Below are positions 41,848-58,983 of a stretch of DNA of 64,000 bases, piece after piece (within the stretch, counting starts at the first letter, position 1; the number at the start of each line of letters is the position of its first letter). The stretch is from Candidatus Edwardsbacteria bacterium. GTDB taxonomy: Bacteria > Edwardsbacteria > AC1 > EtOH8. Location of the stretch: contig JAGVNJ010000006.1 in NCBI GenBank assembly GCA_020053305.1, positions 13,166 to 77,165 of the forward strand, written 5' to 3'. A program made the translations under genes and the position numbers. The notes under the pieces are model-generated. The model was given only the letters and a program-made list of their open reading frames with translations. It searched no databases and was not told the DNA's origin.

Positions 41848-43506
41848 ATGAAAAAATACCTATTGATCACAATATCCCTGTTTCTGGCGCTGCCGACCGC
41901 GCAGGCCGCCCGCTTCCCCCTGTTGGGCGGCCCGGGCCTGATCCATCTGCAGTCGGCCAAGTCCGGGCAGGGTTTTGGCTTCAGAAGCTTCAACGCCATC
42001 ACCAATTACGGCAGCCAGAAAGTGTCCTATCTGCCGGGCAGCGATAATTCGTATAACGACCTGTGGAGTTACAACCTGGTTAATTATTCGCCGATGGATA
42101 ACCTGGCCTTTATGGTGGTCGGTCTGGCCCATGCCGAGCAATGGAGCATAACCAGTCCCGGGGGAGACAGTCTGGACAACACCCTGGGCTGCCCCGGCGA
42201 TTTTACCATAGCCGCCAAATACGGCCTCCAGCTTTATGACGGACAGGTGGACCTGGCGGCCATGCCGATGATCTCCCTTCCCATGGATGAAAAGAAATTT
42301 CAGGATTCGCCCTCGCAGACCGGGAAGGTCGATTTCGGGGGAAAACTGCTGACCGACATTGCCATGGACAAGACCAGCATCCTGGTCAATGTGGGGTTTT
42401 TCACCCGGGGCGACCAGCGGCCACAGGTCCCGGCCGGGTTGGGCGTCAATTATGAAATAAACAACCGGTTCTCGGCTTTTATGGAGACATCTACCGAACT
42501 GCGGATCGGCTCTCTAAAGGATTCCCTGCCCGATTCTATGATCCTGTCAGGACGGGGCTTCGATCGCACCGAAGCCAGGATAACTCCCGGGCTTCGTTTT
42601 GTTCCGCTTCCCTTATTGGGTGTTAACCTGGCCGCCGACATCGGGCTGACCAAGGCCACCCCGGCTTGGCAGGTGGTTCTGGGGCTGGATTTTCCGGCCG
42701 CGGCCGGGCTTATCAGGTCCATCATCCTGCCCGGCACCATCTCCGGCCTGATAAAACACCGCCAGACCAACCAGTCTATCAGAGGCATGATCAGCTTCCC
42801 CGGCACCGATCTGCCGGCGGTGGTCAGCGAACCGAACGGTAGTTATCAATTAAAACTAAACCCCGGCACTTACAATATCAAGGTGATGGCCAACGGTTTT
42901 CGGACGGTTGACCGGAAGCTGGAGGTCAAATCCGGCGAATCGCAGTCCTGGGACCTGACCCTCAGCCCCCGGGAGGGCACCATCAAGGGACAGGTGGCCG
43001 ATGCCGGCACCGGCCGGCCGGTGCCAGCCGTGATCACCCTCAACGGCAACGGCGATAGATACAACAACGATCAGGCTACCGGGGGTTTCAGCTTCACCCT
43101 GGCCGCCCCCAAGAAATACGATCTAAGCGTGACCGCGGAAGGCTATCAGCCTTTTCGGGCCAGCATCAGCCTGATCGATAAGGAAGAATCCATTCAAAAC
43201 ATCGTCCTGCAGCCCATTCCCAAACCCCAGCCGGTCCAGCCGGCAGTGGTCCAAAAACCGACCCAACCGCCGGCAGCCGCGGCGGCAAAACCCAAACCGG
43301 AAAGAAAGCCTGCTCCCAGGGCGCCCGGCTTAAGCCCCGAGGAGGTGGCCTCCCTGTATAAGGCCGGAATAAAACAGTATATGAGCGAGGAATACGACCA
43401 GGCCGTGGCCACTTTCAAAAAGGTGCTGGCGGCCGATCCCGGAAATACCAAGGCCCGGGATTATCTGAAAAAGAGCCAGGAACGTCTAAAGAAAATCAGA
43501 GGATAG
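41848..43506 (+). CDS. Outer-membrane-type protein: N-terminal beta-rich domain, two CarboxypepD_reg-like domains, Pro/Ala linker, C-terminal TPR-like helix pair (paralog 1)
   Basis: Signal peptide, GTISGLIKHRQTNQSIRGMISF and GTIKGQVADAGTGRPVPAVITL (Cna-B/CarboxypepD_reg pattern), PKPQPVQPAVVQKPTQPPAAAAAKPKP linker, YKAGIKQYMSEEYDQAVATFKKVLAADPGNTKARDYL. Confidence 0.6.
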   Translation: MKKYLLITISLFLALPTAQAARFPLLGGPGLIHLQSAKSGQGFGFRSFNAITNYGSQKVSYLPGSDNSYNDLWSYNLVNYSPMDNLAFMVVGLAHAEQWSITSPGGDSLDNTLGCPGDFTIAAKYGLQLYDGQVDLAAMPMISLPMDEKKFQDSPSQTGKVDFGGKLLTDIAMDKTSILVNVGFFTRGDQRPQVPAGLGVNYEINNRFSAFMETSTELRIGSLKDSLPDSMILSGRGFDRTEARITPGLRFVPLPLLGVNLAADIGLTKATPAWQVVLGLDFPAAAGLIRSIILPGTISGLIKHRQTNQSIRGMISFPGTDLPAVVSEPNGSYQLKLNPGTYNIKVMANGFRTVDRKLEVKSGESQSWDLTLSPREGTIKGQVADAGTGRPVPAVITLNGNGDRYNNDQATGGFSFTLAAPKKYDLSVTAEGYQPFRASISLIDKEESIQNIVLQPIPKPQPVQPAVVQKPTQPPAAAAAKPKPERKPAPRAPGLSPEEVASLYKAGIKQYMSEEYDQAVATFKKVLAADPGNTKARDYLKKSQERLKKIRG

Positions 43507-43515
43507 TTTCACTTT

Positions 43516-45240
43516 ATGAAATTGTTATTCCGCTTGACCCTGGTGATGTCCCTTACGGCATCGCTCTCCTGGGCCGCCCGATTCCCGATCATCGGCGGGC
43601 CGGGGCTGGTCCATCTGCAATCGGCCAAGGCCGGCTCGATGTTCGGCTACCGCACGGTGAACTCATTCTCCAACTACGGCCAGCAGAGGGTCTCCTATCT
43701 GGCCGGTGACGCCAATTCCTATAATGATATCTGGAGCCACCAGCTTTTAAGCTTCGCCCCGATGGCCAATCTTTCGCTGATGCTGAGCGGGGTGGCCCAC
43801 GGAGAACAATGGACCATCACCAGCCCCGGCGGCGACAGCCTGGACAACACCCTGGGCTGCCCTGGCGACGTCACCATCTCCGCCAAATACAGCCTGGCCC
43901 TGGCCGATCAGATGGTGGATTTGGGAATAATGCCCATCATCTCTGTCCCCATGGACAAGGAAAAATATCAGGACTCCCCCTCTCAGACCGGCCAGCTGGA
44001 TTTCGGGGCCAAGCTCCTGGGCGATATAAATCTCAGGCAGTCCACCCTGTATGTTAACCTGGGCTTTCTTACCCGGGGCGACCAGCGTCCCCAGGTCCCG
44101 GCCGGAGTGGGATATGAATACGGCTTCAGCCAGAAAATTTCCGCCTTTGCCGAAGTCTCGGCCGAACTGCGGATGGGCTCGGCCAAGGATTCCCTGCCGG
44201 ATTCCCTGGTCCTTTCGGGCCGGGGCTTCGACCGCACCGAGGCCCGCTTCACCCCCGGCATCCATTATGTCCCGCTGGATATCCTGGGCCTCTCCCTCTC
44301 GGCCGACATCGGCCTGACCAAGGCCTCGGCTCCCTGGCAGATCACGTTGGGGCTGGATTTTCCGGCCAGCGCCGGCCGGGCCATCTCCGGTGTGATCACC
44401 GGGGCCATCGCCGGACTGATAAAGGACCGCGACACCGGGGTGCCCATGAAGGGCATGATCACCTTCCCCGGGGCCGGGATCCCGGGGTCCGTCAGCGACG
44501 ATATCGGCAAATACCTGGCCGAGCTGCCGCCGGGGGATTATAAGATCCATATCTACGCCAACGGCTACCGCTGGCTGGAGCGGAAGATCACGGTGGAACC
44601 CGGCAAGAAGGAGAAATGGGACCTGACCCTCAAGCGCAAACTGGGCACCATCAAGGGCACGGTGGTCGATGCCGCCACCGGACAGCCGATTGCGGCCAGC
44701 TTCAGTTTCGTGGGCAAAGACCTGCCGGAGTTCAGCTCCAATCCCCAGAACGGGGAGTATAATACCCAGGCGCCCCCGGGGAAGTACAGTCTTTCGATCA
44801 CTGCCGACGGGTACCAGTCACAAAGCATAGAGGTATCCGCCAGGGACCGAAAGGATGCCGTCAACGATCTGGCCCTGCAGCCGACAGCCTCCGCCCCGGT
44901 GGCATACAATACCGCCTCTAGCCGGACCTACCAACCCCCTGCGGTCTCCGCCCCGGCCGCGCCTCCGCCGGCCAAACCGGCCGTCACCCGGGAAACCGCC
45001 CCCAAGCCGGCCGCCGTCGAAAAACCCAAAGCCGTAGCCCCCAAGCCGGCTGCCTCGGCCAAACTTTCGGCCGACGAAATAAACGATCTTTACAAGACCG
45101 GCGTCAAGCAGTATATGAACGAGGAATACGACCAGGCCGTCAAGACCTTCCAGAAACTTTTGAAATCCGATCCCGGCCACGCCAAGGCCAAGGACTATCT
45201 GGCCAAGGCCAAGGACCGTCTGAAGAAGATCAAGGGTTAA
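43516..45240 (+). CDS. Tandem paralog of 41848-43506 (same domain order)
   Basis: Collinear, with blocks such as ITSPGGDSLDNTLGCPGD, FLTRGDQRPQVPAG and SGRGFDRTEAR shared exactly or nearly so. Confidence 0.6.
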   Translation: MKLLFRLTLVMSLTASLSWAARFPIIGGPGLVHLQSAKAGSMFGYRTVNSFSNYGQQRVSYLAGDANSYNDIWSHQLLSFAPMANLSLMLSGVAHGEQWTITSPGGDSLDNTLGCPGDVTISAKYSLALADQMVDLGIMPIISVPMDKEKYQDSPSQTGQLDFGAKLLGDINLRQSTLYVNLGFLTRGDQRPQVPAGVGYEYGFSQKISAFAEVSAELRMGSAKDSLPDSLVLSGRGFDRTEARFTPGIHYVPLDILGLSLSADIGLTKASAPWQITLGLDFPASAGRAISGVITGAIAGLIKDRDTGVPMKGMITFPGAGIPGSVSDDIGKYLAELPPGDYKIHIYANGYRWLERKITVEPGKKEKWDLTLKRKLGTIKGTVVDAATGQPIAASFSFVGKDLPEFSSNPQNGEYNTQAPPGKYSLSITADGYQSQSIEVSARDRKDAVNDLALQPTASAPVAYNTASSRTYQPPAVSAPAAPPPAKPAVTRETAPKPAAVEKPKAVAPKPAASAKLSADEINDLYKTGVKQYMNEEYDQAVKTFQKLLKSDPGHAKAKDYLAKAKDRLKKIKG

Positions 45241-46114: not shown

Positions 46115-47581
46115 ATGCCAGGACCAGTACGAACCCGCTTCGCCCCCAGCCCCACCGGCTACATGCATATCGGCGGACTTCGCACCGCCCTCTATGCCTA
46201 TCTGCTGGCCAAGCAGAACAACGGTAAATTCATTTTACGTATCGAGGACACCGACCAGGAGCGTTACGTTGACGGCGCAGTGGAGGTTATCTATCGCACA
46301 TTGAAAATGGCAGGTCTTAATTATGACGAGGGACCCGATATCGGCGGATCTTTTGGGCCTTATATTCAAAGCCAGCGCCAATCATTATATCAGGAGCATG
46401 CGGCAAAACTGGTTGAATTGGGTGGGGCATACTATTGTTTTTGCTCGGCTGAACGGTTGGATAATTTACGAAAGGAAGCCGAGGAACGTAAGGAGATTTT
46501 TCAATATGACGGATTGTGCAATAAATTGTCAACGGAAGAGATCAAAAGCAGACTAGCCAATGGCGATCCATATATAATCAGGCAGAATATACCAACCGGC
46601 GGCCAGACCAGTTACAACGATGAGGTATATGGAGCCATTACTGTTGAAAACAGCCAGCTTGATGAAAATGTACTGCTTAAATCAGACGGATTGCCTACCT
46701 ATAATTTTGCCAACGTGATTGACGATCACCTTATGGACATCACTCATGTTATCAGAGGTAATGAGTATCTTTCGCAAACTCCTAAATATTGCCTGTTATA
46801 CCGTTCGTTTGGCTGGGAAGAGCCCAAATATGTTCATGTTTCGCAGATCATTCGGCCGGATGGCAAAAAACTTTCCAAGCGCACCGGCGATGCTTCCTTC
46901 GATGATTTTTATAACAAAGGATTTTTAACCGAGGCCATCGTCAATTATATTGCTCTGCTGGGATGGAATTCAAAAGACGATCGGGAACTGTTTGCTTTAA
47001 GCGAACTGACCGAAGCTTTCTCCATCGCCGGCTTAAGCAAATCCCCGGCCATCTTCGATCCCGACAAACTGAAGTGGATGAACGGCGAGTATATCCGCAA
47101 GCTGGCTCTGGAGCAGTTCAATGATCTGGCAAAGCCCTATTACCAGAAAGCCATTAAACGGACGGATATCGACTTTATAAAGCTCAGCAAGCTGGTCCAG
47201 CTGCGCACCGAGATACTGAGCGACATTCCGGCCATTGTGGATTTTATAGACGCCCTGCCGGAATACGATGTTTCGCTTTATGTGAACAAGAAGATGAAGA
47301 CCGACTTGGCCGTTTCTTTGGAGTCTTTAAAACCGGCCCTGGCCGAACTGGAGAAACTGGGAAGCTGGGAGCACCAGGACATTCATGATACACTTTTTAA
47401 ATTGATAGAACAAAAGGGCCTTAAGACCGGGCAGATGCTGTGGCCCATCCGCACCGCCCTGTCCGGCAAGGAAAGCTCGCCCGGCGGAGCCATTGACCTG
47501 GCCGAGGTGCTGGGGAAAGAAGAGACTTTGAGACGGATCCGATTAGGTGTTGTTTTTATAGAATCAAAGACAATAGTTTAA
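46115..47581 (+). CDS. gltX: Glutamyl-tRNA synthetase
   Basis: RTRFAPSPTGYMHIGGLRTAL (HIGH) and KLSKR (KMSKS). 488 aa. The last ~12 codons are AT-rich. Confidence 0.95.
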   Translation: MPGPVRTRFAPSPTGYMHIGGLRTALYAYLLAKQNNGKFILRIEDTDQERYVDGAVEVIYRTLKMAGLNYDEGPDIGGSFGPYIQSQRQSLYQEHAAKLVELGGAYYCFCSAERLDNLRKEAEERKEIFQYDGLCNKLSTEEIKSRLANGDPYIIRQNIPTGGQTSYNDEVYGAITVENSQLDENVLLKSDGLPTYNFANVIDDHLMDITHVIRGNEYLSQTPKYCLLYRSFGWEEPKYVHVSQIIRPDGKKLSKRTGDASFDDFYNKGFLTEAIVNYIALLGWNSKDDRELFALSELTEAFSIAGLSKSPAIFDPDKLKWMNGEYIRKLALEQFNDLAKPYYQKAIKRTDIDFIKLSKLVQLRTEILSDIPAIVDFIDALPEYDVSLYVNKKMKTDLAVSLESLKPALAELEKLGSWEHQDIHDTLFKLIEQKGLKTGQMLWPIRTALSGKESSPGGAIDLAEVLGKEETLRRIRLGVVFIESKTIV

Positions 47582-47583
47582 TA

Positions 47584-47612
47584 TTGACTTTATCCTCTAT
47601 TTTTATTAAAAT
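47584..47612 (+). promoter_or_regulatory. Sigma70-type promoter of the retron ncRNA (TTGACT-17 nt-TAAAAT)
   Basis: TTGACT at 47584-47589, 17-nt spacer, TAAAAT at 47607-47612. It ends 7 nt before the a1 repeat. Confidence 0.65.
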
Positions 47613-47618
47613 GACAGT

Positions 47619-47771
47619 TGCTATATTCTAGTATTTCCACAAGTGGAATGGATGGTGTTTAGCCGTCCTCTAAAGGGTATCTTACCTTTCTTGGCGAGAG
47701 AAAAGCTCTCGCTTATGAGATACCTCCTAACCGAGAGCTTTTCTCTCGCCCGCTTAAAGTAGAATATAGCA
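47619..47771 (+). ncRNA. Retron msr-msd non-coding RNA
   Basis: 12-nt a1/a2 inverted repeats: TGCTATATTCTA (47619-47630) and TAGAATATAGCA (47760-47771). A G at 47631 directly after a1 is the candidate branching G. msr hairpins: TTCCAC-AA-GTGGAA, GGATGG..CCGTCC, AAGGGTA..TACCTTT. msd has a perfect 19-bp stem: GGCGAGAGAAAAGCTCTCG (47693-47711) pairing with CGAGAGCTTTTCTCTCGCC (47732-47750), with a 20-nt loop. Confidence 0.8.
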
Positions 47772-47797
47772 TTTTTTATTATTTAAGATTTACATAA

Positions 47798-48694
47798 ATG
47801 AATAAGAACGACATACATAAAAAAGTATTAGCTAACTATAAACATTGCGTTACGACTGGCGGGACTTTACTTAGGTCCGATGCTGTACTGGTTTTTTTGT
47901 GTGGGAAAAAACCCGATATCCATAACCCCGGCGGTCGCGATCAAATATTAGATTATGTAAAAAGGCATGAAAAAAGTTTTCGCTTTTTTATTGCGGAAAA
48001 ATTTTTTGAGCATTACAAGTCATCAACTAATTTAAATTTATTAGACATAGAAGATAGTTTAGCAAAATATTCCGATTGTATAATTATAATACTTGAGAGT
48101 GAGGGTACCTTTACTGAACTGGGTGCTTTTTCCTTAAAAAAGGAATTGGTTAAAAATATAATGCTAGTAAACAGCGATAAATTTAAAAACAATGATGATT
48201 CTTTTATAACTCTCGGTCCAATAGCTAAAATAAATAAGGAGTCTGATTTTAAGCCCACCATTTATACAGACTATAAGAGCATATTGAAAGTCACCTCAGA
48301 TATACATGCAAGACTTGAACGAATAAAGCGAGAAAAAATCAAACACTATCCAATTAAAGATCATCTTGCTTTTCAAGAGCTTAAACCCAAAATAAAGCTT
48401 CTTTTTATAAGTGATATAATATCAATTTTTCAGCCGATAACTTATGGAGAAATAATTAATGTTTTGACTGATTTATACGGCAACAATAAATATGATATTA
48501 ATTTTGAAATAAGCTTCTTGCAATCTATCGATTTAATAAAGAATATACAGAAAAAATATTATATTTCCACCATGAGTGAAAAAAGTTTATTTTTTATGTA
48601 TGCGGGAATAAATATTATCAAATATAGATCAAACCTACTTAACCTATACTGTAAGTATGATAATGAACGAATCAACGCTTTTACATATAGATGA
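47798..48694 (+). CDS. Retron accessory/effector protein, probably nucleoside-deoxyribosyltransferase-like N-domain plus C-terminal DNA-binding-like domain (St85/Sen2 RcaT-type position)
   Basis: Sits between the ncRNA and the RT, as in St85-type retrons. The N-domain (VLVFLCGKK...IIIILESEGTFTELGAF) fits a Rossmann-like NDT/TIR-like fold with an acidic catalytic candidate. 298 aa. Overlaps the RT start (ATGA). Confidence 0.6.
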   Translation: MNKNDIHKKVLANYKHCVTTGGTLLRSDAVLVFLCGKKPDIHNPGGRDQILDYVKRHEKSFRFFIAEKFFEHYKSSTNLNLLDIEDSLAKYSDCIIIILESEGTFTELGAFSLKKELVKNIMLVNSDKFKNNDDSFITLGPIAKINKESDFKPTIYTDYKSILKVTSDIHARLERIKREKIKHYPIKDHLAFQELKPKIKLLFISDIISIFQPITYGEIINVLTDLYGNNKYDINFEISFLQSIDLIKNIQKKYYISTMSEKSLFFMYAGINIIKYRSNLLNLYCKYDNERINAFTYR

Positions 48695-49650
48695 TGTTTA
48701 ACTTGATTGATATATTATCAAGATATACGGGGTTTAACGAAGATGAGGTGAACAGCATCATCGCTAAAGCACCAACTACTTATAAGAAATATAGTATTAA
48801 GAAACGAAGGGGCGGAACAAGAACTATATACCATCCTTCAAAAGAAACTAAAACACTACAGTATGTTTTATTAAATTACTACCTCAACGCTTTCCCTGTT
48901 CATAAATGTGCTTATGCATACATAAAGGGAAATAAATCACCCCTTCTGAATAATGCTTTAAAACATAAGGATTATAAATATTCGATATGCTTAGATATAA
49001 AAGACTTTTTTCCATCTATTAAACCAGATGATTTGTTAAATATTCTCACAGAGAAAAATTCGTTTACAAAAGAAGAAAAACAACACTTGATCAATTTATT
49101 GTTTATATCACAGAAAAACGGAATGCCTTCTTTACCTATCGGTGCGCCTACATCTCCAATGATAAGCAATATAATAATGTATGATTTGGATAATAAAATA
49201 AACGGTTTGGCACACAAAATAAACAAACGTTCTGTATATACAAGATACGCAGATGATCTTGTCTTTTCAACAAATACTAAAGGTGCTTGCTTAAACTTTT
49301 ATAAAAACCTTGAATCATTGCTCACAAAAACAAAAAGTCCCAAATTAACCATTAATAAATTGAAAACAAACTTATGCTCACGAAAAAACAGACGCATTGT
49401 TACAGGTTTGGTGATTTGCCCAACAGCTACAATATCGGTGGGTCGTAAAAATAAAAGATATATAAGAAAACTATTACTGGATTATAAATATAATAAGTTG
49501 GATATAAAAATGAAACATCATCTTAGTGGTTATCTTGCGTATATTTTAGATGTAGAACCTGAGTTCTATAACAGATTGATACTTAAATATGGTGGAGAAA
49601 TTGTTAATGCTGCACTACAGCAAACGCGTTCAATAATATCAAGTAGGTAA
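48691..49650 (+). CDS. Retron-type reverse transcriptase
   Basis: [21 protein letters not shown] (retron NAxxH motif), [29 protein letters not shown] (YADD catalytic box), RIVTGLVI (retron VTG motif). 319 aa. Confidence 0.9.
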
Positions 49651-49655
49651 TTAAT

Positions 49656-51356
49656 ATGAACAACACCGAAAACACCAAGACACCCATCGAGGGCGCGGCC
49701 GCCACCAACTTCATCCGCGAGGCCGTGGCCGAGGACCTCAAGAGCGGCCGCTTCAAATCGGTCCACACCCGCTTCCCGCCGGAGCCCAACGCCTACCTCC
49801 ATATCGGCCACGCCAAGGCCATCTGGATAGACTACGGCATAGCTTTGGAATTCGGCGGGTTGTTCAACCTGCGGTTCGACGACACCAATCCCGCCAGGGA
49901 GGAGCAGGAATTCGTGGACGCCATCATCCAGGACGTCAAATGGCTGGGGGCCGATTTCGGCGACCGGCTGCTGTTCGCCTCGGACTACTTCGAGCAGATG
50001 TATCAGTGGGCCGAGGAGCTCATTAAAAAAGGCCAGGCCTACGTCTGCGACCTGGCGGCCGAAGAGGTCAGCAAGACCAGGGGAACCCTGACCGAGCCGG
50101 GGAAGAACAGCCCCAACCGTGAGCGCAGTGTTGACGAGAATCTGGACCTGTTCCGCCGGATGAGGGCCGGGGAGTTTCCCGACGGCTCAAAGACCCTGCG
50201 GGCCAAGATGGACATGACCCATGCTAATCTGAACCTGCGCGACCCGGTGATGTACCGCATCCTGCACACCCCTCACCACCGCCAGGGCGACAAGTGGTGC
50301 CTCTATCCCATGTACGACTGGGCCCACGGCCTGGAGGATTCCATCGAGGGCATCACCCACTCACTGTGCTCGCTGGAATACGAGGATCACCGCCCGCTGT
50401 ACGACTGGTTTTTGGATCAGCTGGGCATCTATCATCCCCGGCAGATCGAGTTCGCCCGGCTGAACCTGACCTATACCGTGATGAGCAAGAGAAAATTCAT
50501 CGACCTGGTAAAGGCCAAAAAAGTGACCGGATATGACGATCCCCGGCTTTCCACTCTGGCCGGGATGCGCCGCCGGGGTTTCTCCCCGCTGGCCATCAAG
50601 AATTTCTGCGAGCGGATCGGGGTGGCCAAGCGCGACAGCCTGGTGGATTACGCCCTGCTGGAGCATTATGTCCGGGAGGACCTTAACAAACGGGCCCCCC
50701 GCTACATGGGGATACTGAATCCGGTCAAGGTGGTGCTGACCAATTACCCCGAGGGCCAAAGCGAGGAGCTGGAGGCGGTCAACAACCCCGAGGATCCCTC
50801 GGCCGGCACCAGGAAGGTCCCCTTCTCCCGCGAGCTTTACCTGGAACGGGAGGATTTCATGGAGGAGCCGCACAAGAAGTTCTACCGCCTGTCGCCGGGC
50901 CGCGAGGTGCGCCTGCGCTGGGCCTATTTCATCACCTGCCAGGAAGCCATTAAGGACGCTTCGGGCAACATCACCGAGCTGCGCTGCACCTACGACCCGG
51001 CCACCAAGGGCGGCGACGCCCCGGACGGCCGCAAGGTCAAAGCCACCCTGCACTGGGTGTCGGCCAGGCATGCCATCAAGGCCGAGGCCCGGCTGTATGA
51101 CAAGCTGTTCACCAAAGAGAATCCGGACGACGCCCCGGAGGGGCAGGATTTTACCGCCAATTTGAATCCCGATTCGCTGAAAGTGATACCAGATTGCAAA
51201 TGCGAACCGGCCCTGGCCAAGGTAAAGCCGGGGGAGGCCATCCAATTGGAGCGACTGGCCTATTTCTGCGTGGACCCGGATTCAAAGAACGGCAAACTGG
51301 TGCTCAACCGGACGGTGCCGTTGAAGGAGTCCTGGGGCAAGACAGTGAAGGAGTAA
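49656..51356 (+). CDS. glnS: Glutaminyl-tRNA synthetase
   Basis: [17 protein letters not shown] (HIGH) and VMSKRK (KMSKS). 566 aa. Its ATG is only 5 nt after the RT stop. Confidence 0.95.
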
Positions 51357-52336: not shown

Positions 52337-52359
52337 GGCGGCCCCTTTCTTGTTTCCGG

Positions 52360-53496
52360 CTACGCCAACTCCCCGCTAAAAGCCCTTTGCATAAGCGAAT
52401 TGAACAGGTTGTTCAGTTCTTGCTCAGAGGCTTTTTGCTTGTTTTTTAGTTGTTTGACTTTAATATAAATATTTGAAAATATTTTTTGATCCTCTATGTT
52501 GGGTATTGATATTACCACGTTAGATAAAAAAGACGTTGGCACCCTTTTTTGACCTGCCGTGCCAGTCATATTTCTTGCTGCAATATCTCTAACCGGTTTA
52601 TAGGACAAAACAAAATGTAACCATTCGCTTGTCAACTGCTTAAGCGGTCTTAAAACATGAAATTCTGTTGACCCAAAGCCTACACCGTTTTTCAAATTTT
52701 GTGCTATTGCACCTTTCCCATTTTCCATACAAGGTGTTATTTTAGCAAAAAGTACATCGCCATTTTTGAAATATGTATAGCCCTTGCTTACTTCTTCATA
52801 TGTTTTTGTAATACCTATATCGATGTAGCCTTCTTCTGAAACAGATCTCATTGGAACAAAAGAAACGAAGCTGCCTTTTTTTAATTTTACGCCAATTTTA
52901 GGATTGATAATGCAAACATCCGATAATTTTTTTCTGTTATTTGTTTGCCGCAAAGGATCACCAAACATATCCAAAAACACCGACCTTAAAAACTCATCGG
53001 TCAGTTCATTGGCTTCTTTGCGTTTTTGCATGGCGGCCTCGGCTTTTTCAAGTATGGCGGCTATCTTGCGCTGGGTGGGCAAGGGTGGGTATAAAATATT
53101 GAGGCCATCGAATCTACCTTTGGTAATGTGTTTCATTGTTGCCCCATGCACCTGACTTTCCATAACAATCAATATATTTTTCATAGCATAATAAAAATAC
53201 ATTTTATCAATATTATTATGCAGTTTAACTTTAAAAGTATGCTGATTAAGGACAGCTTTCCCACCCTTCCAGATATAGATTCCTAACGATGCCGACCATG
53301 ATATTAAAAGATCATCGTCCTGTATAATGTATTTGTTTTCAATAGGGCCATCATAGTAGTTATACGCCTGACTTGTATTTGTTAAGTTCTGAATTCTAAT
53401 TATTGGCAGACCCTTTTGTTTCCATTCGCTGGGTTTAAACGCTCTGCCATTAATAAACTCACCTACTTCTTTAAGCTTTACTGTTGGATATTTCAT
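52360..53496 (-). CDS. hsdS: Type I restriction-modification specificity subunit
   Basis: Two target-recognition halves separated by conserved coiled regions (LPTQRKIAAILEKAEAAMQKRKEA...; C-terminal ELNNLFNSLMQRAFSGEL). Overlaps the hsdM stop. Confidence 0.85.
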   Translation of the reverse strand: MKYPTVKLKEVGEFINGRAFKPSEWKQKGLPIIRIQNLTNTSQAYNYYDGPIENKYIIQDDDLLISWSASLGIYIWKGGKAVLNQHTFKVKLHNNIDKMYFYYAMKNILIVMESQVHGATMKHITKGRFDGLNILYPPLPTQRKIAAILEKAEAAMQKRKEANELTDEFLRSVFLDMFGDPLRQTNNRKKLSDVCIINPKIGVKLKKGSFVSFVPMRSVSEEGYIDIGITKTYEEVSKGYTYFKNGDVLFAKITPCMENGKGAIAQNLKNGVGFGSTEFHVLRPLKQLTSEWLHFVLSYKPVRDIAARNMTGTAGQKRVPTSFLSNVVISIPNIEDQKIFSNIYIKVKQLKNKQKASEQELNNLFNSLMQRAFSGELA

Positions 53497-55004
53497 AAAT
53501 ATTTTTTCAAAACATTCACTTGTTTCAAAATGTCTTGTTCTATGGTTGTAATTTTCTTTACTATACTCAAAGGCTTCTCGCTCTTCACTTCCTCATACTC
53601 CACCGGCTTATATCGCGAGAGTGAAAGATCGTAATCGTTCTTCTTTATCTCCGCATAATCCACCCACAGCCACTTTTCACCCTTCTTCGGCTGTTTCTTC
53701 TTGTCCCGCCTGGCCCACTTCTCCAAAATATCCGGGATATCGCTGCCTTCTATCTTGGTCCTTTTATCATCCAGGGCATAGCCGTCGTTCTGCATGTCAT
53801 AAAACCAGACCTTGTCCGTCTTTTCGCCCTTGGTAAACAGCATCACCGCCGCCGAGACCCCGGCGTAGGGCTTGAACACCCCGGAGGGCATGGAGATTAT
53901 GCCGTCCAGCCGGCACTGCTCCAATATCATCTTCCTGGCGTCCTGGTGGGCGTTGGAGGAGCCGAACAGCACGCCGTCCGGCACTATCACGGCGCAGCGG
54001 CCGCCCGGAACCAGCATGTTCACGAAAAGATTAAGAAACAACAGCTCGGTCTTGGGAGTCTGGCTTTTGCCGGTTACCGTCAGGTCCCCGGCTATGTCGC
54101 TCTTGTCCACGTTGCCCTTAAAGGGCGGGTTGGCCAGTATCACCTCGTATTTATTGCGCTGGGTAAAACTCTTGGAAAGGGTGTCGGCATAACTGATGTT
54201 GGGGCTTTCCAGCCCGTGCAGCACCATGTTCATCAGGGAGATCCGCACCATGGTGGTGTCGAAATCGTATCCGTAAAAGGTCTTGTTATGGAGCCGGTCC
54301 CAGTCCGTTTTGTTCACCAATTTGTCGGCGCTCAAATGGTGGGGCGCGCCGTCTTCGTCGTATTCTATGTTTTTGGGATCGGTGTATTTGAGCAATATGT
54401 GGTTAAAAGCATTGCATAAGAACCCGGCGGTGCCGCAGGCCGGATCGCAGACCCTCTCGCCCAGCTGGGGGTCGGCCAGACTGACCATCATCCGGATTAT
54501 ATGGCGGGGGGTGCGGAACTGCCCGTTCTTGCCGGACTGGGAGATCTCGGACAGCAGGTATTCGTAAATGTCTCCCTGAACGTCTATTCCCTGGCCGGTG
54601 ATGTCTATGTCGTCCAGCACTTTTACCGCCTCCTTTATCAGGGACGGCTTGGGAATCATGAACACCGCATCCCGCATGGACTGGGCGTAAAAGTTTTCCT
54701 GTCCCTGAAACTCCTTGATAAAAGGAAACACCGAATCGCGCACATGCTTGAGCATGGTTTCGGCCTCGTAGTGCATCCAGTGCGACCAGCGGCAGTTTTC
54801 TTTGCCCTTGAAAATGCTGGCGTATTTCTGCCCCTTGCGTTCGGCCTGGCGGCGTTTTTGCTCATCCAGGTCTTCCAAACGCTTGATGAAGATCAAGTAA
54901 GATATCTGTTCTATGGAGGTAAGCGGGTTGGCCATGCCGCCGGCAAAAAACAAGTTCCACAACTTGTCTATTTTGGCCTTAATCTCGGGATGCGACTTCA
55001 GCAT
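53493..55004 (-). CDS. hsdM: Type I restriction-modification N6-adenine DNA methyltransferase
   Basis: GQFRTPRHI, DPACGTAGFL (SAM binding), ILANPPFKG (NPPF catalytic motif). Confidence 0.95.
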   Translation of the reverse strand: MLKSHPEIKAKIDKLWNLFFAGGMANPLTSIEQISYLIFIKRLEDLDEQKRRQAERKGQKYASIFKGKENCRWSHWMHYEAETMLKHVRDSVFPFIKEFQGQENFYAQSMRDAVFMIPKPSLIKEAVKVLDDIDITGQGIDVQGDIYEYLLSEISQSGKNGQFRTPRHIIRMMVSLADPQLGERVCDPACGTAGFLCNAFNHILLKYTDPKNIEYDEDGAPHHLSADKLVNKTDWDRLHNKTFYGYDFDTTMVRISLMNMVLHGLESPNISYADTLSKSFTQRNKYEVILANPPFKGNVDKSDIAGDLTVTGKSQTPKTELLFLNLFVNMLVPGGRCAVIVPDGVLFGSSNAHQDARKMILEQCRLDGIISMPSGVFKPYAGVSAAVMLFTKGEKTDKVWFYDMQNDGYALDDKRTKIEGSDIPDILEKWARRDKKKQPKKGEKWLWVDYAEIKKNDYDLSLSRYKPVEYEEVKSEKPLSIVKKITTIEQDILKQVNVLKKYL

Positions 55005-55027
55005 TTTATCCTTTTGGGTTAAATATT

Positions 55028-55118
55028 AATGGGGTAAATATTTTTCAATATTACCCCATTATAGGTAAATTTACCTCATTTTGTCAATAGGGTAATAAGA
55101 TTCTCATATTACCCTATT
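55028..55118. promoter_or_regulatory. Cluster of three palindromes sharing GGTAA/TTACC half-sites between fic and hsdM
   Basis: AATGGGGTAAATAT (55028-55041) pairs with ATATTACCCCATT (55048-55060). AGGTAAATTTACCT (55063-55076) is a perfect palindrome. ATAGGGTAATA (55087-55097) pairs perfectly with TATTACCCTAT (55108-55118). Confidence 0.55.
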
Positions 55119-55129
55119 TGTTTTATCCC

Positions 55130-56173
55130 TTACCCTATTTTCTTCCACTGAGCGCTCCGGCCCTTTCCGGTGGTTTTTATCTTTCCTTCGTCCCGAAGCT
55201 GCCTCAAAACCAGCCGGATCATGTCCCGGGTAACATTGGGGCAGGCGCTCTCCACCTCGGAGATGGAAAACGGCTTGATGAATTTATCAACGGCGGCTTT
55301 CACCTGGTCGGTCTTGGAGCCCTTGCCCTGATAGGTGCCCACCCGTTCCTCGAATTCCTTGTAGGCCGCCAACAGGGTGCCGTAAAAATACCTCAGCCAG
55401 GGGAACACATCGTGCTTCCCTTGATGCCAGCCTTGGGAGGACTGGTAAAGCACTTCGTAATAGGTTTTTTTGCTGTCTTCAATGATCCGCTCCAGGCTTA
55501 TGTATTTGCCCACCTGGTAGCCCGACTGGTACAAAAGCAAAAGAGTCAACAATCTGGCCATCCTCCCGTTTCCGTCGGAGAAAGGATGGATGCAAAGAAA
55601 ATCCAAGACAAACAGGGGTATGGCCACCAGCGGCTCGGTATGATCTTTATTGAGTTGATGGTTGTAATTGGCTATCAACTTTTTTACGTAGTCCGGCGTT
55701 TCAAAGGGGGAAACCGGCTTGAATCGTAATTTTGTTTTACCGTCTTTAAGCACGTCAACAATTTCATTCTCACCCAGCTTCCAATTGCCCGCCCCGATTC
55801 CGGTGTAACGGTATAGCATGGAGTGGAATTGCAGTATCACGTTTTCCGAAAGAGGGATGTCCTTGTGCGACTGATGAATTTGGTTCAAAACATCCCGATA
55901 CCCGGCTATCTCCTGCTCCGGCCGGTTCCGGGGGGCAACGTTATCTTTGACGATCTTCTTCACCCGATGGGGAGCGGCCAATATTCCTTCGATCCGGTTT
56001 GAAGACTCGGCGCTTTGCACGATGGCGCTTTCCAGCAACTGCTCCAAAGCTTCTGGCGATTGACGGCGGCATAATTCCTCTTTGCCCTTATACTCGCCGA
56101 TCGTCCTTACCTGCGAAGCCTCGTCCACGCCAAATTTAAGCTTACCGATAAATTTGTTTTCAAACGACTTCAT
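55130..56173 (-). CDS. Fic/DOC family protein with C-terminal winged-helix-like domain
   Basis: Fic motif HPFSDGNGRMARLL. The C-terminal ~70 aa (ISEVESACPNVTRDMIRLVLRQLRDEGKIKTTGKGRSAQW) look like a wHTH. The ATGA at 56170-56173 overlaps the hsdR stop. Confidence 0.9.
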   Translation of the reverse strand: MKSFENKFIGKLKFGVDEASQVRTIGEYKGKEELCRRQSPEALEQLLESAIVQSAESSNRIEGILAAPHRVKKIVKDNVAPRNRPEQEIAGYRDVLNQIHQSHKDIPLSENVILQFHSMLYRYTGIGAGNWKLGENEIVDVLKDGKTKLRFKPVSPFETPDYVKKLIANYNHQLNKDHTEPLVAIPLFVLDFLCIHPFSDGNGRMARLLTLLLLYQSGYQVGKYISLERIIEDSKKTYYEVLYQSSQGWHQGKHDVFPWLRYFYGTLLAAYKEFEERVGTYQGKGSKTDQVKAAVDKFIKPFSISEVESACPNVTRDMIRLVLRQLRDEGKIKTTGKGRSAQWKKIG

Positions 56174-58977
56174 TTGCTTTTTCCCGTATAATTTCCGGGA
56201 ACCCCGGTTTTATTGAATATGTTGACAATATCCTTCAGCTCGTTTTCGGTGAAAAGGCGGAGGGCGGCTTCGGAACCGAACATGGTAAAAGGCGGCTCGA
56301 ACAAGTCGGAATACTCGATATGTTTCTTTTCGGCAAAAACATTCTTGATGGTTCTCAGGAATCTGACCTGATCGGCCGATAGCGGGTTTTGGGCATCCCG
56401 TTCCTTAACATAGGTATCAAAGGATTGCTGTACCAGTTCCAATGAATTCGGGAAACGGTAATGCCCCAAAATGCTTTTTACAAATTGTACCAGCGTGCCG
56501 TTGGGCTGTTCGAAAGCCTTGCGCAGGTTTTCCTCGGTTATGTATAACTCCGGCCCGTTTAGGGTTTTCTCAAGTTTTTCTATGTCCCGGTCATTGACCG
56601 GCAGCCCGGCTTTGATCTTTTTGATGACCGGGTGTTGCCAGGCTAATTCCGTTATTTTTTCTTCAACCTTTTTCCGGTAATTGGCTACATAATCCCCCTG
56701 CCCTTCCGGCCCAAATTCGATCCACTTGCGGTTAACCACCAAATCGCTCAGGTCCAGCCGCAGAATGTTGCGTTCCTCAATCTGCCAAAACCGCATGATA
56801 TCCCAAAGCGAGTCGCGCACAAAAAGGCTCTTTTCATAATTCAGATTAGCCCAAAAGGCGGCGGAGGTTATTTGCCGAATAACCGGCTCTTTAGCTTTTA
56901 CCGCCTCCAGGTTCATCGGCAAATGACTTATATCGCTTAATATTTCTTCCCTTAACCGCTCGATTTGCGGCCGGTTATTTCCCAATATTGCCAGGCCAAG
57001 TTTCTCGGTTTTATATATAAAACCTTCCTGATGGTAGTCCACCTGGTTTTTAAATCTAAAAAGCGGCGCTATCGATAAATCCAGAAAGTCACAATTCTTC
57101 TTGCTATAATTACGCCAAAGGTCATCGCCTATGGCTTTTTCAATATTTCTGCGGTTTTCCTTTATAGTTACCGAGTTTTCGGGCAACAGCTTTATGTCTT
57201 GTATCAACTCCTCTTTTAAAGCCTTTGCCTTGTCTTCTTCGCCATTATTTAAGAGCCAATTGAGTTTTTGCAGACGGATCCTGAATATCTTAACCGGAAG
57301 GGCTTCCTGCTGGTTCGGGGGCTCGCCTTGGGGGTTCATCCCAAAATATTCAAAATTGTTCCAGTGATCAATTATCAGAAACCTGTTTTTGTAGGTGCAC
57401 CAGGGCTTTCGCAGGTTTTCGTCTTTTTCCAATATTCTTGTGCCCCGGCCTATCATCTGCCAGAATTTTATCTTGCTGAAAATAGGTTTGGCAAAGACCA
57501 GATTGACGATTTCCCTTACGTCTATGCCGGTATCCAGCATATCGACCGAAATAGCCACCCGAAGATTGCTATTGTTTTTAAATTTATCGATCAGGGAAAG
57601 CGGCCGTTCCATTTTGGAATCAATGATTTCCGCCAGCTTCCCCTTATATTCCGGATATAAGCGGTTAAATATTTCCCACAGCCTTTTGGCATGCTGATGA
57701 GAGATGGCAAATATTATAGACTTCCCCGGCATAACCCCGGCATCATCCTTGATGCAAACATCCATGAATTCGCGGATCAACGCTTCATTTGTTCCGGCGT
57801 TGGTTACTTTCCGTTCTAGGTCAGTTCCCTCAAAATCGATCTGATCCGGCTCCAAACCAGCCTCTATCAAAATATTTCTAATTGCTTCCGGCAATTCCCG
57901 GCCTTTAATGCCTTGTATCTGAAAATTAGTCCGGGCGGAATAAGGCGGGTTAAAGTCAACCAGATGCCCGTCTTTTACGGCCTGCTCATAATCGTAATGA
58001 AAGGTCGGCGCATCATCAAAGCACTCAAAATATTTAAAGGTGTCCCGGTCAATAAAGTCTGATGGCGTAGCGGTAAGGCCTATTTGAATGCCATGAAAAT
58101 AGCTTAAAACATCCTTCCATTTATTGTATATGGAACGGTGGCATTCGTCCGAGACAATAAGATCAAAATAACCGGGAGAAACGTTATTGAAACAACCATT
58201 CATTGTCTGGATGGTAGTCACATACAAACTGGCGGCGGGATCAATTTCGCCAGAACGAATATATTGACGCGGTTGTTCCGGCAGATATTTCTTATAGGCG
58301 TCGCTGGCTTGCACCGCCAGAGCCTCCCGGTCGGTTAAGAACAATACTTTTTGCACATTATTGGATCTTAACAATATATCAATTAAACCCATTGCCGTCC
58401 GGGTTTTCCCGGTTCCCGTTGCCATAACCAAAAGAAATTTACGCCTGTTGTTTTTAAAACCTTCGGCCACTCTTTTAACGGCTTCTAGTTGGTAATCCCT
58501 GTCAATAATTGACGGATTTATTGATGTAGTTAAAAGGGGTTGGTTGTTCTGGTTTTGAAACCTTATTCTCTCTAAATCATCACGGGAAAAGAGGCCGTAA
58601 ACCATTAACGGCCCGGCCTTCTCCTTGTTCCAAAACCATATCTCATAACCGTTGGTTAAAAATATAAAGGGCGCTGTTCCGTATTTGTTCTTAATGCCCG
58701 TAGCATATTCTTCAGCTTGTTGTTTCCCCGCAATAGGATCACGCGAAGTTCTTTTAGCCTCAATGATAGCTAATGGTTTCTGATGCCGGTCAAACAACAT
58801 ATAATCCACAAAACCATCAGAATCTGCAGGTTGTTGTTCGCTAACCATGTTAGGCTCGGCAGTTATTTTATATTCGGTAACAACTTCGCTGCGGTTGTCA
58901 ATGTTCCAACCCGCCTTAACAAGCAAACCGTCTATGTAATTTTTACGGGTCTGTGCCTCTGAAATGTTTTGTGGCAT
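56170..58977 (-). CDS. hsdR: Type I restriction enzyme R subunit (helicase-nuclease)
   Basis: N-terminal SEAQTRKNYIDGLL...EAKR nuclease region, helicase motifs LLVMATGTGKTRTA (I), DECHRS (II), GLTATP (III). 935 aa. Confidence 0.9.
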   Translation of the reverse strand: MPQNISEAQTRKNYIDGLLVKAGWNIDNRSEVVTEYKITAEPNMVSEQQPADSDGFVDYMLFDRHQKPLAIIEAKRTSRDPIAGKQQAEEYATGIKNKYGTAPFIFLTNGYEIWFWNKEKAGPLMVYGLFSRDDLERIRFQNQNNQPLLTTSINPSIIDRDYQLEAVKRVAEGFKNNRRKFLLVMATGTGKTRTAMGLIDILLRSNNVQKVLFLTDREALAVQASDAYKKYLPEQPRQYIRSGEIDPAASLYVTTIQTMNGCFNNVSPGYFDLIVSDECHRSIYNKWKDVLSYFHGIQIGLTATPSDFIDRDTFKYFECFDDAPTFHYDYEQAVKDGHLVDFNPPYSARTNFQIQGIKGRELPEAIRNILIEAGLEPDQIDFEGTDLERKVTNAGTNEALIREFMDVCIKDDAGVMPGKSIIFAISHQHAKRLWEIFNRLYPEYKGKLAEIIDSKMERPLSLIDKFKNNSNLRVAISVDMLDTGIDVREIVNLVFAKPIFSKIKFWQMIGRGTRILEKDENLRKPWCTYKNRFLIIDHWNNFEYFGMNPQGEPPNQQEALPVKIFRIRLQKLNWLLNNGEEDKAKALKEELIQDIKLLPENSVTIKENRRNIEKAIGDDLWRNYSKKNCDFLDLSIAPLFRFKNQVDYHQEGFIYKTEKLGLAILGNNRPQIERLREEILSDISHLPMNLEAVKAKEPVIRQITSAAFWANLNYEKSLFVRDSLWDIMRFWQIEERNILRLDLSDLVVNRKWIEFGPEGQGDYVANYRKKVEEKITELAWQHPVIKKIKAGLPVNDRDIEKLEKTLNGPELYITEENLRKAFEQPNGTLVQFVKSILGHYRFPNSLELVQQSFDTYVKERDAQNPLSADQVRFLRTIKNVFAEKKHIEYSDLFEPPFTMFGSEAALRLFTENELKDIVNIFNKTGVPGNYTGKSK

Positions 58978-58983
58978 GATAGG

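Follow-up and report, generated by a model that had tools for sequence, protein, structure and literature searches.

Organisation of the locus

The window analysed here, a 64,000-nucleotide stretch of contig JAGVNJ010000006.1 from Candidatus Edwardsbacteria, contains a compact cassette at positions 47584-49650 that consists of a promoter-like site, a 153-nt msr-msd RNA gene, the gene of a 298-aa effector (47798-48694) and the gene of a 319-aa reverse transcriptase (RT; 48691-49650). All parts are on one strand, the forward strand, in the order ncRNA-effector-RT, and the start of the RT gene overlaps the effector stop by ATGA. Neither of the two open reading frames has a frameshift or an internal stop. 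An earlier note, made from the letters of this DNA, had described the two genes, their overlap and a GC-rich uncultivated host; the genes and the overlap are as described, and the lineage can now be named as Candidatus Edwardsbacteria (flanks of 56-58% GC; host GlnS 95-96% identical to MAG proteins). The gene order is that of type II-A1 retrons (Mestre et al. 2020, PMC7736814). It is also kept in L091, the nearest relative, with retron proteins 82-83% identical to the Edwardsbacteria copy, and 31 of 37 related loci have an RT with YADD directly 3' of the effector gene.

The putative promoter is sigma-70-like (TTGACT-17 nt-TAAAAT, 47584-47612, forward strand), with 10/12 matches to the consensus, and lies 7 nt upstream of the a1 arm of the RNA. 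This site, already pointed out as near-consensus in the earlier note, has the joint top score in the scanned region, and L091 has TTGACA-17-TAAAAT with the same offset to a1. The match alone is at chance level in AT-rich DNA (10 sites found, 9.7 expected), and the scoring used the sigma-70 consensus, which may not be the host's own. At the other end of the cassette, the RT stop codon is 5 nt upstream of the glnS start with no terminator between the RT gene and glnS; transcription therefore probably runs on into glnS.

The reverse transcriptase is of the retron St85 family

The RT has the sequence motifs NALKH (residue 88), YADD (residue 186) and VTG (residue 237), in agreement with the NAxxH, YADD and VTG motifs read from it before. 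On NF038233, the model of retron RTs of the St85 family, it has 321.4 bits, with a cut-off of 235. A PADLOC search, suggested in the earlier note, gave RT_II-A as best model (338 bits, 1.2e-101), followed by RT_I-A with 274 bits; all 25 matches listed for the RT are retron RT models, and the best RT_II-A model is a different one from the RT_II-A models with lower scores. The best 13 PDB sequence matches are all retron or retron-type RTs: six clade-1 structures, retron RTs of the Ec78/Ec83 clade, score 139-171 bits, and the Ec86 RT scores 100. Judged by these profile and PDB sequence scores, the RT groups with clade 1, which is common to types II-A1 and I-A. As the RT of Ec86 (clade 9) ranks below all six clade-1 structures, the system is predicted to be a sister subtype of II-A3 and not II-A3 itself.

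The effector belongs to the RcaT/STM3845 family

The 298-aa protein (47798-48694, forward strand) has a predicted NDT-like N-glycosidase domain at its N-terminus, followed by a C-terminal domain, as indicated by family models, alignment and a structure model. Its score on NF038232, the model for retron effectors of the St85 family (STM3845 family), is 177.2 bits with a cut-off of 100; the protein also matches PADLOC NDT_II-A with 4.9e-52 and is listed in precomputed Pfam under PF28093 (STM3845). A Pfam set that does not contain PF28093 gave no match, which is not evidence for a new family, and an exact-sequence look-up found no identical effector on record. The predicted catalytic glutamate is E107, within FTELGAF. 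It is invariant across 27 homologues, and its counterpart in the alignment with the Eco1 effector is E106, which is mutated (E106A) in PDB 8qbl.

Structure prediction, likewise proposed in the earlier note, returned the expected NDT-like fold: the AlphaFold model (pLDDT 88.6) matches the Ec86/Eco1 effector in Foldseek over its full length (1.8e-11, about 310 columns), and the next matches are the N-glycosidases NDT, MilB and BcmB. By sequence and predicted fold the protein is thus assigned to the RcaT/STM3845 family with the catalytic glutamate kept, and the earlier suggestion of a divergent or even new effector family does not hold. The scores above the cut-offs of both NF038233 and NF038232, the PADLOC assignments to NDT_II-A and RT_II-A and the gene order bear out the St85/Sen2-like retron call: the cassette is an St85-family member of an already well-studied retron type.

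A covarying msr-msd RNA upstream of the effector gene

The retron RNA extends from a1 to a2 (47619-47771, forward strand) and is a covarying msr-msd structure. Its fold has -75.8 kcal/mol, compared with -36 +/- 4.2 for shuffled sequences (z = -9.5; none of 200 shuffles was as good), and it scores 137 bits on a covariance model (E 1.9e-24). Across 17 homologous loci, 93.6% of cells are paired (slid controls: 42-48%) and 29 of 33 pairs show compensatory changes; not one of 500 shuffles reached the observed values. In about 50 related loci the covariance model has a match a short distance 5' of the effector gene, and it has none in relatives with an empty slot.

The 12-nt inverted repeats of the earlier note are the arms a1 (TGCTATATTCTA, 47619-47630) and a2 (TAGAATATAGCA, 47760-47771), which pair over 12 bp. 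This first helix is 97.5% paired across the 17 homologues, with covariation in 9 of 10 pairs, and L091 has a compensatory change (T>C in one arm, A>G in the other). The G that had been noticed directly 3' of a1 is G47631, the putative branching G; its column (G13) is invariant in 17 related RNAs, and we infer that its 2'-OH primes msDNA synthesis.

The three small msr hairpins described previously fared differently. The second (GGATGGTGTTTAGCCGTCC, 47650-47668) is a conserved stem-loop of the RT-recognition type, with 95.8% pairing and covariation in 4 of 7 pairs, and a similar motif is present in the annotated St85-family loci L097 and L098. The first (47635-47648, 5 bp) stems from the single-sequence fold and varies in length: most relatives have a hairpin at this place, with an alignment too poor for pair counts. 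The third, predicted by the single-sequence fold, is not supported as a conserved helix: its pairing of 60% is at the level of slid controls (54-60%). What is conserved at this position (47673-47689) is the sequence, as a linker motif (AGGGTATCTTACCTTTCT), and by analogy with PMC12673091 reverse transcription probably ends here.

The msd part is a stem-loop with a short structured tip (47693-47750) and the predicted template of the msDNA hairpin. Its stem is perfect over 19 pairs (47693-47711 with 47732-47750), exactly as stated in the earlier note, and all 16 counted pairs show compensatory changes; no GATC (Dam) site was read in the stem sequence. An Rfam scan of 47000-50000 (E <= 10) returned no retron RNA family, which reflects a narrow curated model and not the absence of a retron RNA. 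The scan's only matches were to miRNA precursors; they cover the msd hairpin on either strand, score far below the gathering thresholds and are artefacts that a long perfect hairpin produces. For annotated enterobacterial loci of the St85 family the covariance model gave no full-length match, only a partial one (22 bits).

The retron occupies a variable slot between gltX and glnS

Homology breakpoints and GC content delimit an AT-rich island (47539-49655) of 0.30 GC between flanks of 0.56 and 0.58. It takes the place of the final ~10 codons of gltX and reaches as far as the glnS start codon; the slot is flanked by two tRNA-synthetase genes. Sequence homology with L092, L095 and L096, the nearest relatives, breaks off at 47526-47538 and is found again from 49649-49656. 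The closest relatives have other cargo in this slot, and in a more distant lineage it is filled by an 83%-identical retron. The cassette is an AT-rich island of foreign origin, and its chromosomal slot is variable. Direct repeats or att-like sites were looked for at both ends of the island; a 7-nt TTAATAT match, at chance level, was the only result, and there are no tRNA genes in the window. A second strain-specific defence island, a type I restriction-modification (R-M) system, is located 2.7 kb from the retron.

At the DNA level, glnS has 81-92% identity to L091 in its 5' half, and import of the retron together with flanking gene segments was considered as an explanation. It was rejected, because retron-less members of the L091 clade show the same split in GlnS identity (86-89% in the N-terminal and 64-65% in the C-terminal part). 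A rather unlikely reading is that the cassette, which has no integrase, moves as a unit between distant lineages (Edwardsbacteria, TA06-like) into the slot between the gltX 3' end and the glnS start and takes over transcription of the essential glnS. If true, this would be a site-preferring defence module that is anchored to an essential gene, and not random hotspot cargo.

Comparison with known retrons

Retron-Sen2 (St85) of Salmonella Typhimurium, type II-A1, has the order msrmsd - rcaT (STM3845) - rrtT and thus the same order as the Edwardsbacteria locus. The family models are shared too: the effector family (NF038232, PF28093) is named after STM3845, and the RT family is NF038233. By analogy, the same logic is expected, with RT-msDNA as antitoxin and the NDT-like protein as toxin. 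Differences are the host, a candidate phylum and not a gammaproteobacterium, and the shorter msd, with a predicted msDNA of about 65-80 nt compared with 85 in Sen2. The nearest annotated St85-family effectors are 28-37% identical to the Edwardsbacteria effector.

In the phage and plasmid collections, the closest annotated effector relatives are those of Klebsiella phage 4LV2017 (NC_047818) and E. coli plasmid pCombat13F7-1 (NZ_CP019246), with 36-37% identity. Both are annotated as "retron St85 family effector protein"; the RT then follows in the phage record, and the plasmid record has a partial gene table that does not include an RT gene. Both have the msr hairpin-2 motif and an msd stem in common with the Edwardsbacteria locus, but their RNA is too diverged for a full-length match to the model (22 bits, partial) and, unlike the Edwardsbacteria copy, they are on P2-like phage elements of enterobacteria.

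Retron-Eco1 (Ec86; type II-A3, structures 7v9x, 7xjg and 8qbk-8qbm) has a homologous effector: phmmer aligns the two over residues 29-149 with 6.7e-12, the catalytic glutamate is conserved and the structure model predicts a two-domain effector here too. Overall identity of the effectors is 18-20%, and the Eco1 RT is distant (100 bits, compared with 139-171 for the clade-1 RTs).

Effectors of type I-A retrons are a PtuA ATPase and a PtuB HNH nuclease encoded downstream of the RT, whereas the Edwardsbacteria locus has an NDT-like protein between ncRNA and RT. The RTs of the type I-A retrons Eco7 (Ec78) and Eco4 (Ec83) are in the same clade as the one described here (139-165 bits), and the ncRNA-RT module is common to types IA and IIA1 (Mestre et al., PMC7736814).

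Proposed mechanism and alternative explanations

With a probability of about 0.85, the locus is an intact retron of type II-A1 (St85/Sen2 family) that most likely works as a toxin-antitoxin system of three parts, by which a phage-infected cell is killed or arrested; its functional role in defence we infer from homology. The promoter at 47584-47612 would drive a single transcript with the msr-msd RNA and both genes. The RT would bind msr hairpin 2, prime from the 2'-OH of G47631 and copy the msd region leftwards from about position 47758, and the product would be a branched msDNA of about 65-80 nt with the 19-bp hairpin as core. The complex of RT and msDNA may then hold the NDT-like effector inactive, as is the case for RcaT in Sen2 (10.1101/2020.06.22.160168), and phage activity that methylates, degrades or sequesters msDNA would free it (10.1101/2020.06.22.160242; 10.1101/2023.08.16.553469). 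Once released, the N-glycosidase domain with E107 would stop growth through an attack on NAD(P)+ or on nucleoside derivatives (PMC12673091, with reference to Carabias 2024 and Wang 2024). Effector toxicity, neutralisation by RT-msDNA and phage triggers are known for Sen2 and Eco9 only (10.1101/2020.06.22.160168; 10.1101/2020.06.22.160242).

The cassette could be a true retron by descent that is silent or non-functional in this host, as a recent AT-rich import that is poorly expressed or decaying. An island of 30% GC in a genome of 56-58% GC is poorly adapted in codon usage and expression could be weak; its promoter follows an enterobacterial consensus and is statistically undistinctive; and the absence of the cassette from relatives with 95-96% identical GlnS points to a recent arrival. 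However, both open reading frames are intact with all invariant and catalytic residues kept, the RNA helices are perfect, and the compensatory a1/a2 changes and 82-83% protein identity of the L091 copy indicate purifying selection on all three parts, which makes a silent retron improbable. Still a little less probable is a mainly selfish addiction (toxin-antitoxin) module, whose role in a recombination hotspot would be to keep itself and the essential genes next to it stable and not to defend against phages. The earliest characterisation of Sen2 was as a tripartite toxin-antitoxin system (10.1101/2020.06.22.160168), the cassette described here is packed closely between two essential genes, with the RT stop 5 nt before glnS and no terminator, and relatives have other cargo in the slot. 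Yet Sen2 and Eco9 have triggers and blockers of phage origin (10.1101/2020.06.22.160242), related type II-A retrons protect against phages (PMC7736814; PMC12673091) and a type I R-M system 2.7 kb away is what is expected of defence cargo; addiction and defence are, moreover, not mutually exclusive.

There is next to no likelihood that the RT is of another class (group II intron, DGR or Abi/UG/DRT) with hairpins that flank it by coincidence. The group II intron, Drt and AbiA models do match the RT weakly and below threshold, as expected for any bacterial RT, but they reach 25-64 bits with cut-offs of 200-550, compared with 321 bits on the St85 model with its cut-off of 235. No maturase or endonuclease domain, intron RNA or DGR template/variable repeat pair was found, and the msr-msd RNA covaries and carries a branching G that is invariant. 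The PADLOC and NF038233 scores together with the RNA covariation refute a non-retron RT.

Significance

The Edwardsbacteria locus leaves the current understanding of retrons unchanged. It does add an apparently complete and compact cassette (2.1 kb, with an ncRNA of ~150 nt and a short perfect msd hairpin) that is a possible editing scaffold, and the ~50 environmental loci with covarying ncRNA could directly seed an RNA family that is missing from Rfam. The slot between gltX and glnS is a small and clean example of a variable hotspot flanked by core genes, and in two lineages it has acquired the same retron. The locus also extends the Sen2/St85-type defence system, well characterised in enterobacteria, to a candidate phylum without cultured members.

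Reverse transcriptase and family placement

The 298-aa effector ORF (47798-48694, plus strand) and the 319-aa reverse transcriptase (RT) ORF (48691-49650, plus strand) overlap by ATGA, as the earlier note had read, and the RT carries the NAxxH, YADD and VTG motifs named there (NALKH at residue 88, YADD at 186 and VTG at 237). The assignment to a St85/Sen2-like retron is borne out by curated profiles: the RT scores 321.4 bits on NCBIfam NF038233 (retron St85 family RNA-directed DNA polymerase, cut-off 235) and the effector 177.2 bits on NF038232 (STM3845_fam, retron St85 family effector protein, cut-off 100). PADLOC, run as the note had proposed, returns RT_II-A for the RT (1.2e-101, with RT_I-A next) and NDT_II-A for the effector (4.9e-52). 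Judged by these scores, both proteins are unambiguous members of curated retron families.

Among RTs with solved structures, those of the Ec78/Ec83 group (139-171 bits) are closer to the RT than that of Ec86 (100 bits). This agrees with the description of type II-A1 by Mestre et al. 2020, whose members Sen2/St85, Vch2 and Eco3 have a clade 1 RT and a shared IA/IIA1 ncRNA-RT module; Ec86 is placed there in type II-A3, with its RT in clade 9 (PMC7736814), and the window retron lies outside that subtype. The best solved-structure match of the RT is PDB 22et_A / 22eu (170.8 bits, 4.2e-49), a 310-aa chain whose sole label is 'Retron'. This chain is nearer to the RT than Ec78, Ec83 or Ec86 and is possibly a type II-A1 RT itself. 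All features of the St85/type II-A1 family that can be tested from sequence were found, with the sole exception of an Rfam match: no curated model fits the ncRNA.

Promoter and non-coding RNA

A promoter-like TTGACT-17-TAAAAT lies at 47584-47612 on the plus strand and ends 7 nt before a1, the first of the two end-pairing arms of the msr-msd ncRNA. Such sites are not commoner than in shuffles of the AT-rich DNA of the retron (10 seen, 9.7 expected), so the promoter call rests on position and on conservation in L091, the metagenome contig with the nearest retron relative, which has TTGACA-17-TAAAAT at equal offset. The RT stop codon is 5 nt 5' of the glnS ATG (window 49648-49658) and no plus-strand terminator was found between RT and glnS; the essential glnS is therefore probably co-transcribed through the retron. 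L091 is arranged alike, with an RT-glnS gap of 1 nt.

The near-consensus promoter, the 12-nt a1/a2 inverted repeats with an adjacent G and the perfect msd stem of the earlier note were all recovered. The plus-strand ncRNA consists of a1 (TGCTATATTCTA, 47619-47630), G47631 directly after it, three small msr hairpins in the single-sequence fold (47635-47648, 47650-47668 and 47673-47689), a perfect 19-bp msd stem with a small structured tip (47693-47711 paired with 47732-47750, also from the single-sequence fold) and a2 (TAGAATATAGCA, 47760-47771), the reverse complement of a1. Its fold energy is -75.8 kcal/mol, compared with -36 +/- 4.2 for dinucleotide shuffles (z = -9.5), and none of 200 shuffles equals it.

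Genome and metagenome scans with the effector alignment yielded 90 loci; among the closest 37, the effector gene is directly followed by an ORF with YADD in 31. Most of these loci have inverted repeats 5' of the effector that differ in sequence and keep the same spacing, many of them ending in CTA-G, and the upstream RNAs of related loci fold into the architecture of the window ncRNA. In an alignment of 17 such RNAs, the G after a1 is an invariant column, and the RNAalifold consensus structure includes the a1/a2 helix, hairpin 2 and msd stem, with compensatory changes in 29 of 33 pairs. Pair counting finds 93.6% of cells paired, versus 42-48% when partner columns are slid by 1-3, and 130 double-change cells versus 24-44 in these slid controls; on no measure did any of 500 shuffles come up to the real alignment. 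The covariance model derived from this alignment matches the plus strand just 5' of the effector gene at about 50 loci, many of them outside the seed, and has no match in relatives that lack the retron.

Of the three msr hairpins reported earlier, the third is present in the single-sequence fold and lacks comparative support: as a conserved helix, 47673-47689 was rejected, with 60.5% paired cells versus 54-60% in two slid controls. We read it instead, from the alignment, as a conserved linker with the consensus AGGATTTCTTACCTTTCT. In the Eco1 and Eco7 structures, reverse transcription terminates in the corresponding region (PMC12673091), and by analogy the linker may be the reverse-transcription end region of the window retron.

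With filters off, the covariance model gives a partial match of 22 bits (hairpin 2 and msd stem) in two annotated St85-family loci, on the E. coli plasmid pCombat13F7-1 (L097) and in Klebsiella phage 4LV2017 (L098). In both, the CDS annotated as 'retron St85 family effector' begins at 2267 (L097:2267-3148; L098:2267-3319, NC_047818 gp10), msr hairpin 2 and the msd stem fall at 2281-2373 by the model, and similarity at the protein level starts only from ~2501; the CDS as annotated probably extends across the ncRNA.

Effector

A Pfam-A scan assigns no family to the effector (47798-48694), and PF28093 (STM3845) is precomputed on every effector homologue in a large protein collection; the missing match can be an artefact of the Pfam version scanned. 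In Salmonella, STM3845 is the locus of RcaT, the toxin of the retron Sen2 studied by Bobonis et al. A search of solved structures pairs the effector with that of Ec86/Eco1 (6.7e-12, residues 29-149), with which it shares the conserved motif FTELGAF. PDB 8qbl ("inactive effector E106A") departs from wild type exactly at the Glu aligned to E107, a residue invariant in 27 effector homologues, as are G36, R47, E67, E85, D93, E100 and S101.

A confident AlphaFold2 model built on the homologue alignment (pLDDT 88.6, pTM 0.86) has the Ec86/Eco1 effector as its top PDB matches (~310 columns, 1.8e-11 to 4.4e-10, probability 1.0). Its N-terminal domain also resembles, less strongly, nucleoside 2'-deoxyribosyltransferases and two CMP N-glycosidases, MilB and BcmB. 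Because of these matches, the predicted fold is NDT-like, as the earlier note had suspected, and its alternative of a divergent or new effector family is dropped, given also the NF038232 score and PF28093 on the homologues.

Proposed mechanism

By analogy with the family, the promoter would drive a transcript starting near a1, and the RT would recognise the msr, prime from the 2'-OH of G47631 and copy the msd from ~47758 to ~47685. The product would be a branched msDNA of roughly 65-80 nt around the 19-bp hairpin. RT-msDNA may then bind the effector and keep it inactive, as is described for RcaT in Sen2 (10.1101/2020.06.22.160168). The effector would be freed once the msDNA is modified, degraded or sequestered by a phage function; triggers described include Dam and RecE for Sen2 (10.1101/2020.06.22.160242) and Dcm for Ec86 (10.1101/2023.08.16.553469). 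The N-glycosidase domain would then deplete NAD(P)+ or adenine nucleotide derivatives and infection would be aborted (cf. PMC12673091).

Within AAAGCTCT / AGAGCTTT of the msd stem, AGCT forms a paired palindrome (47704-47707 and 47736-47739); this site is not conserved across relatives, and GATC is absent from the stem. If msDNA methylation were the trigger as in Sen2 and Ec86, one might speculate that the sensed methyltransferase would differ.

The gltX-glnS slot and other loci

The retron lies between gltX (46115-47581) and glnS (49656-51356), whose product is 95-96% identical to proteins of Candidatus Edwardsbacteria MAGs (candidate phylum). The island (47539-49655) has a GC content of 30%, compared with 56% and 58% in its flanks. 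Sequences of the nearest relatives cease to be homologous to the window at 47526-47538, some 10 codons short of the gltX stop, and are homologous again from the glnS start. These last ~10 codons of gltX (47539-47581; ETLRRI followed by RLGVVFIESKTIV and the stop) fall inside the AT-rich island. The C-terminal tail of GltX is different in every relative compared; thus, each cargo brings its own. Whereas the window and L091 have the retron between the two genes, the nearest relatives L092-L096 have either a 105-aa AT-rich ORF (L092-L094) or a TonB-dependent receptor (L095 and L096), the latter also seen in L101; L099 carries a 174-aa ORF there and L100 a gene for a 316-aa Zn-ribbon protein. The slot (window 47526-49656) is thus a hotspot of variable content in genomes of Edwardsbacteria and TA06-like lineages.

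L091 belongs to another lineage: the GlnS it encodes shares 86% identity with the protein from a "candidate division TA06" MAG, its downstream synteny consists of rubrerythrin genes, and its relatives L099 and L100 (GlnS 86% and 92% identical) have no retron and different ORFs in the slot. Its retron (L091:1167-3242, window 47539-49655) encodes proteins 82-83% identical to those of the window, compared with 59% for GltX and 75% for GlnS, a gap implying that the cassette was exchanged laterally and came into this one slot in both lineages; the ncRNAs are 94.7% identical, with a compensatory change in a1/a2. The retron has entered the slot at least twice or was exchanged between lineages. Import of flanking gene segments together with the retron was rejected, since clade members without the retron show the same apparent increase in identity over the 5' half of glnS. 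We found neither an integrase nor att-like repeats or a tRNA with the cassette.

Two adjacent paralogous genes of about 550-575 aa, PEGA / CarboxypepD_reg-like by the annotation of relatives, lie 5' of gltX (41876-45240; mutual DNA identity 67-68%). A second strain-specific island (52349-58980), which the nearest relatives lack, encodes on the minus strand a complete type I restriction-modification system with hsdS (52360-53496, in the AT-rich part), hsdM (53493-55004), a Fic/DOC-family gene (55130-56173) between hsdM and hsdR, and hsdR (56170-58977).

The closest database relative is 84% identical and all others are at most ~50%; the NCBI pipeline would name RT and effector correctly. The interest of this retron lies at the margins: its host phylum, its recurrence in the same slot and a usable seed alignment for the ncRNA family.
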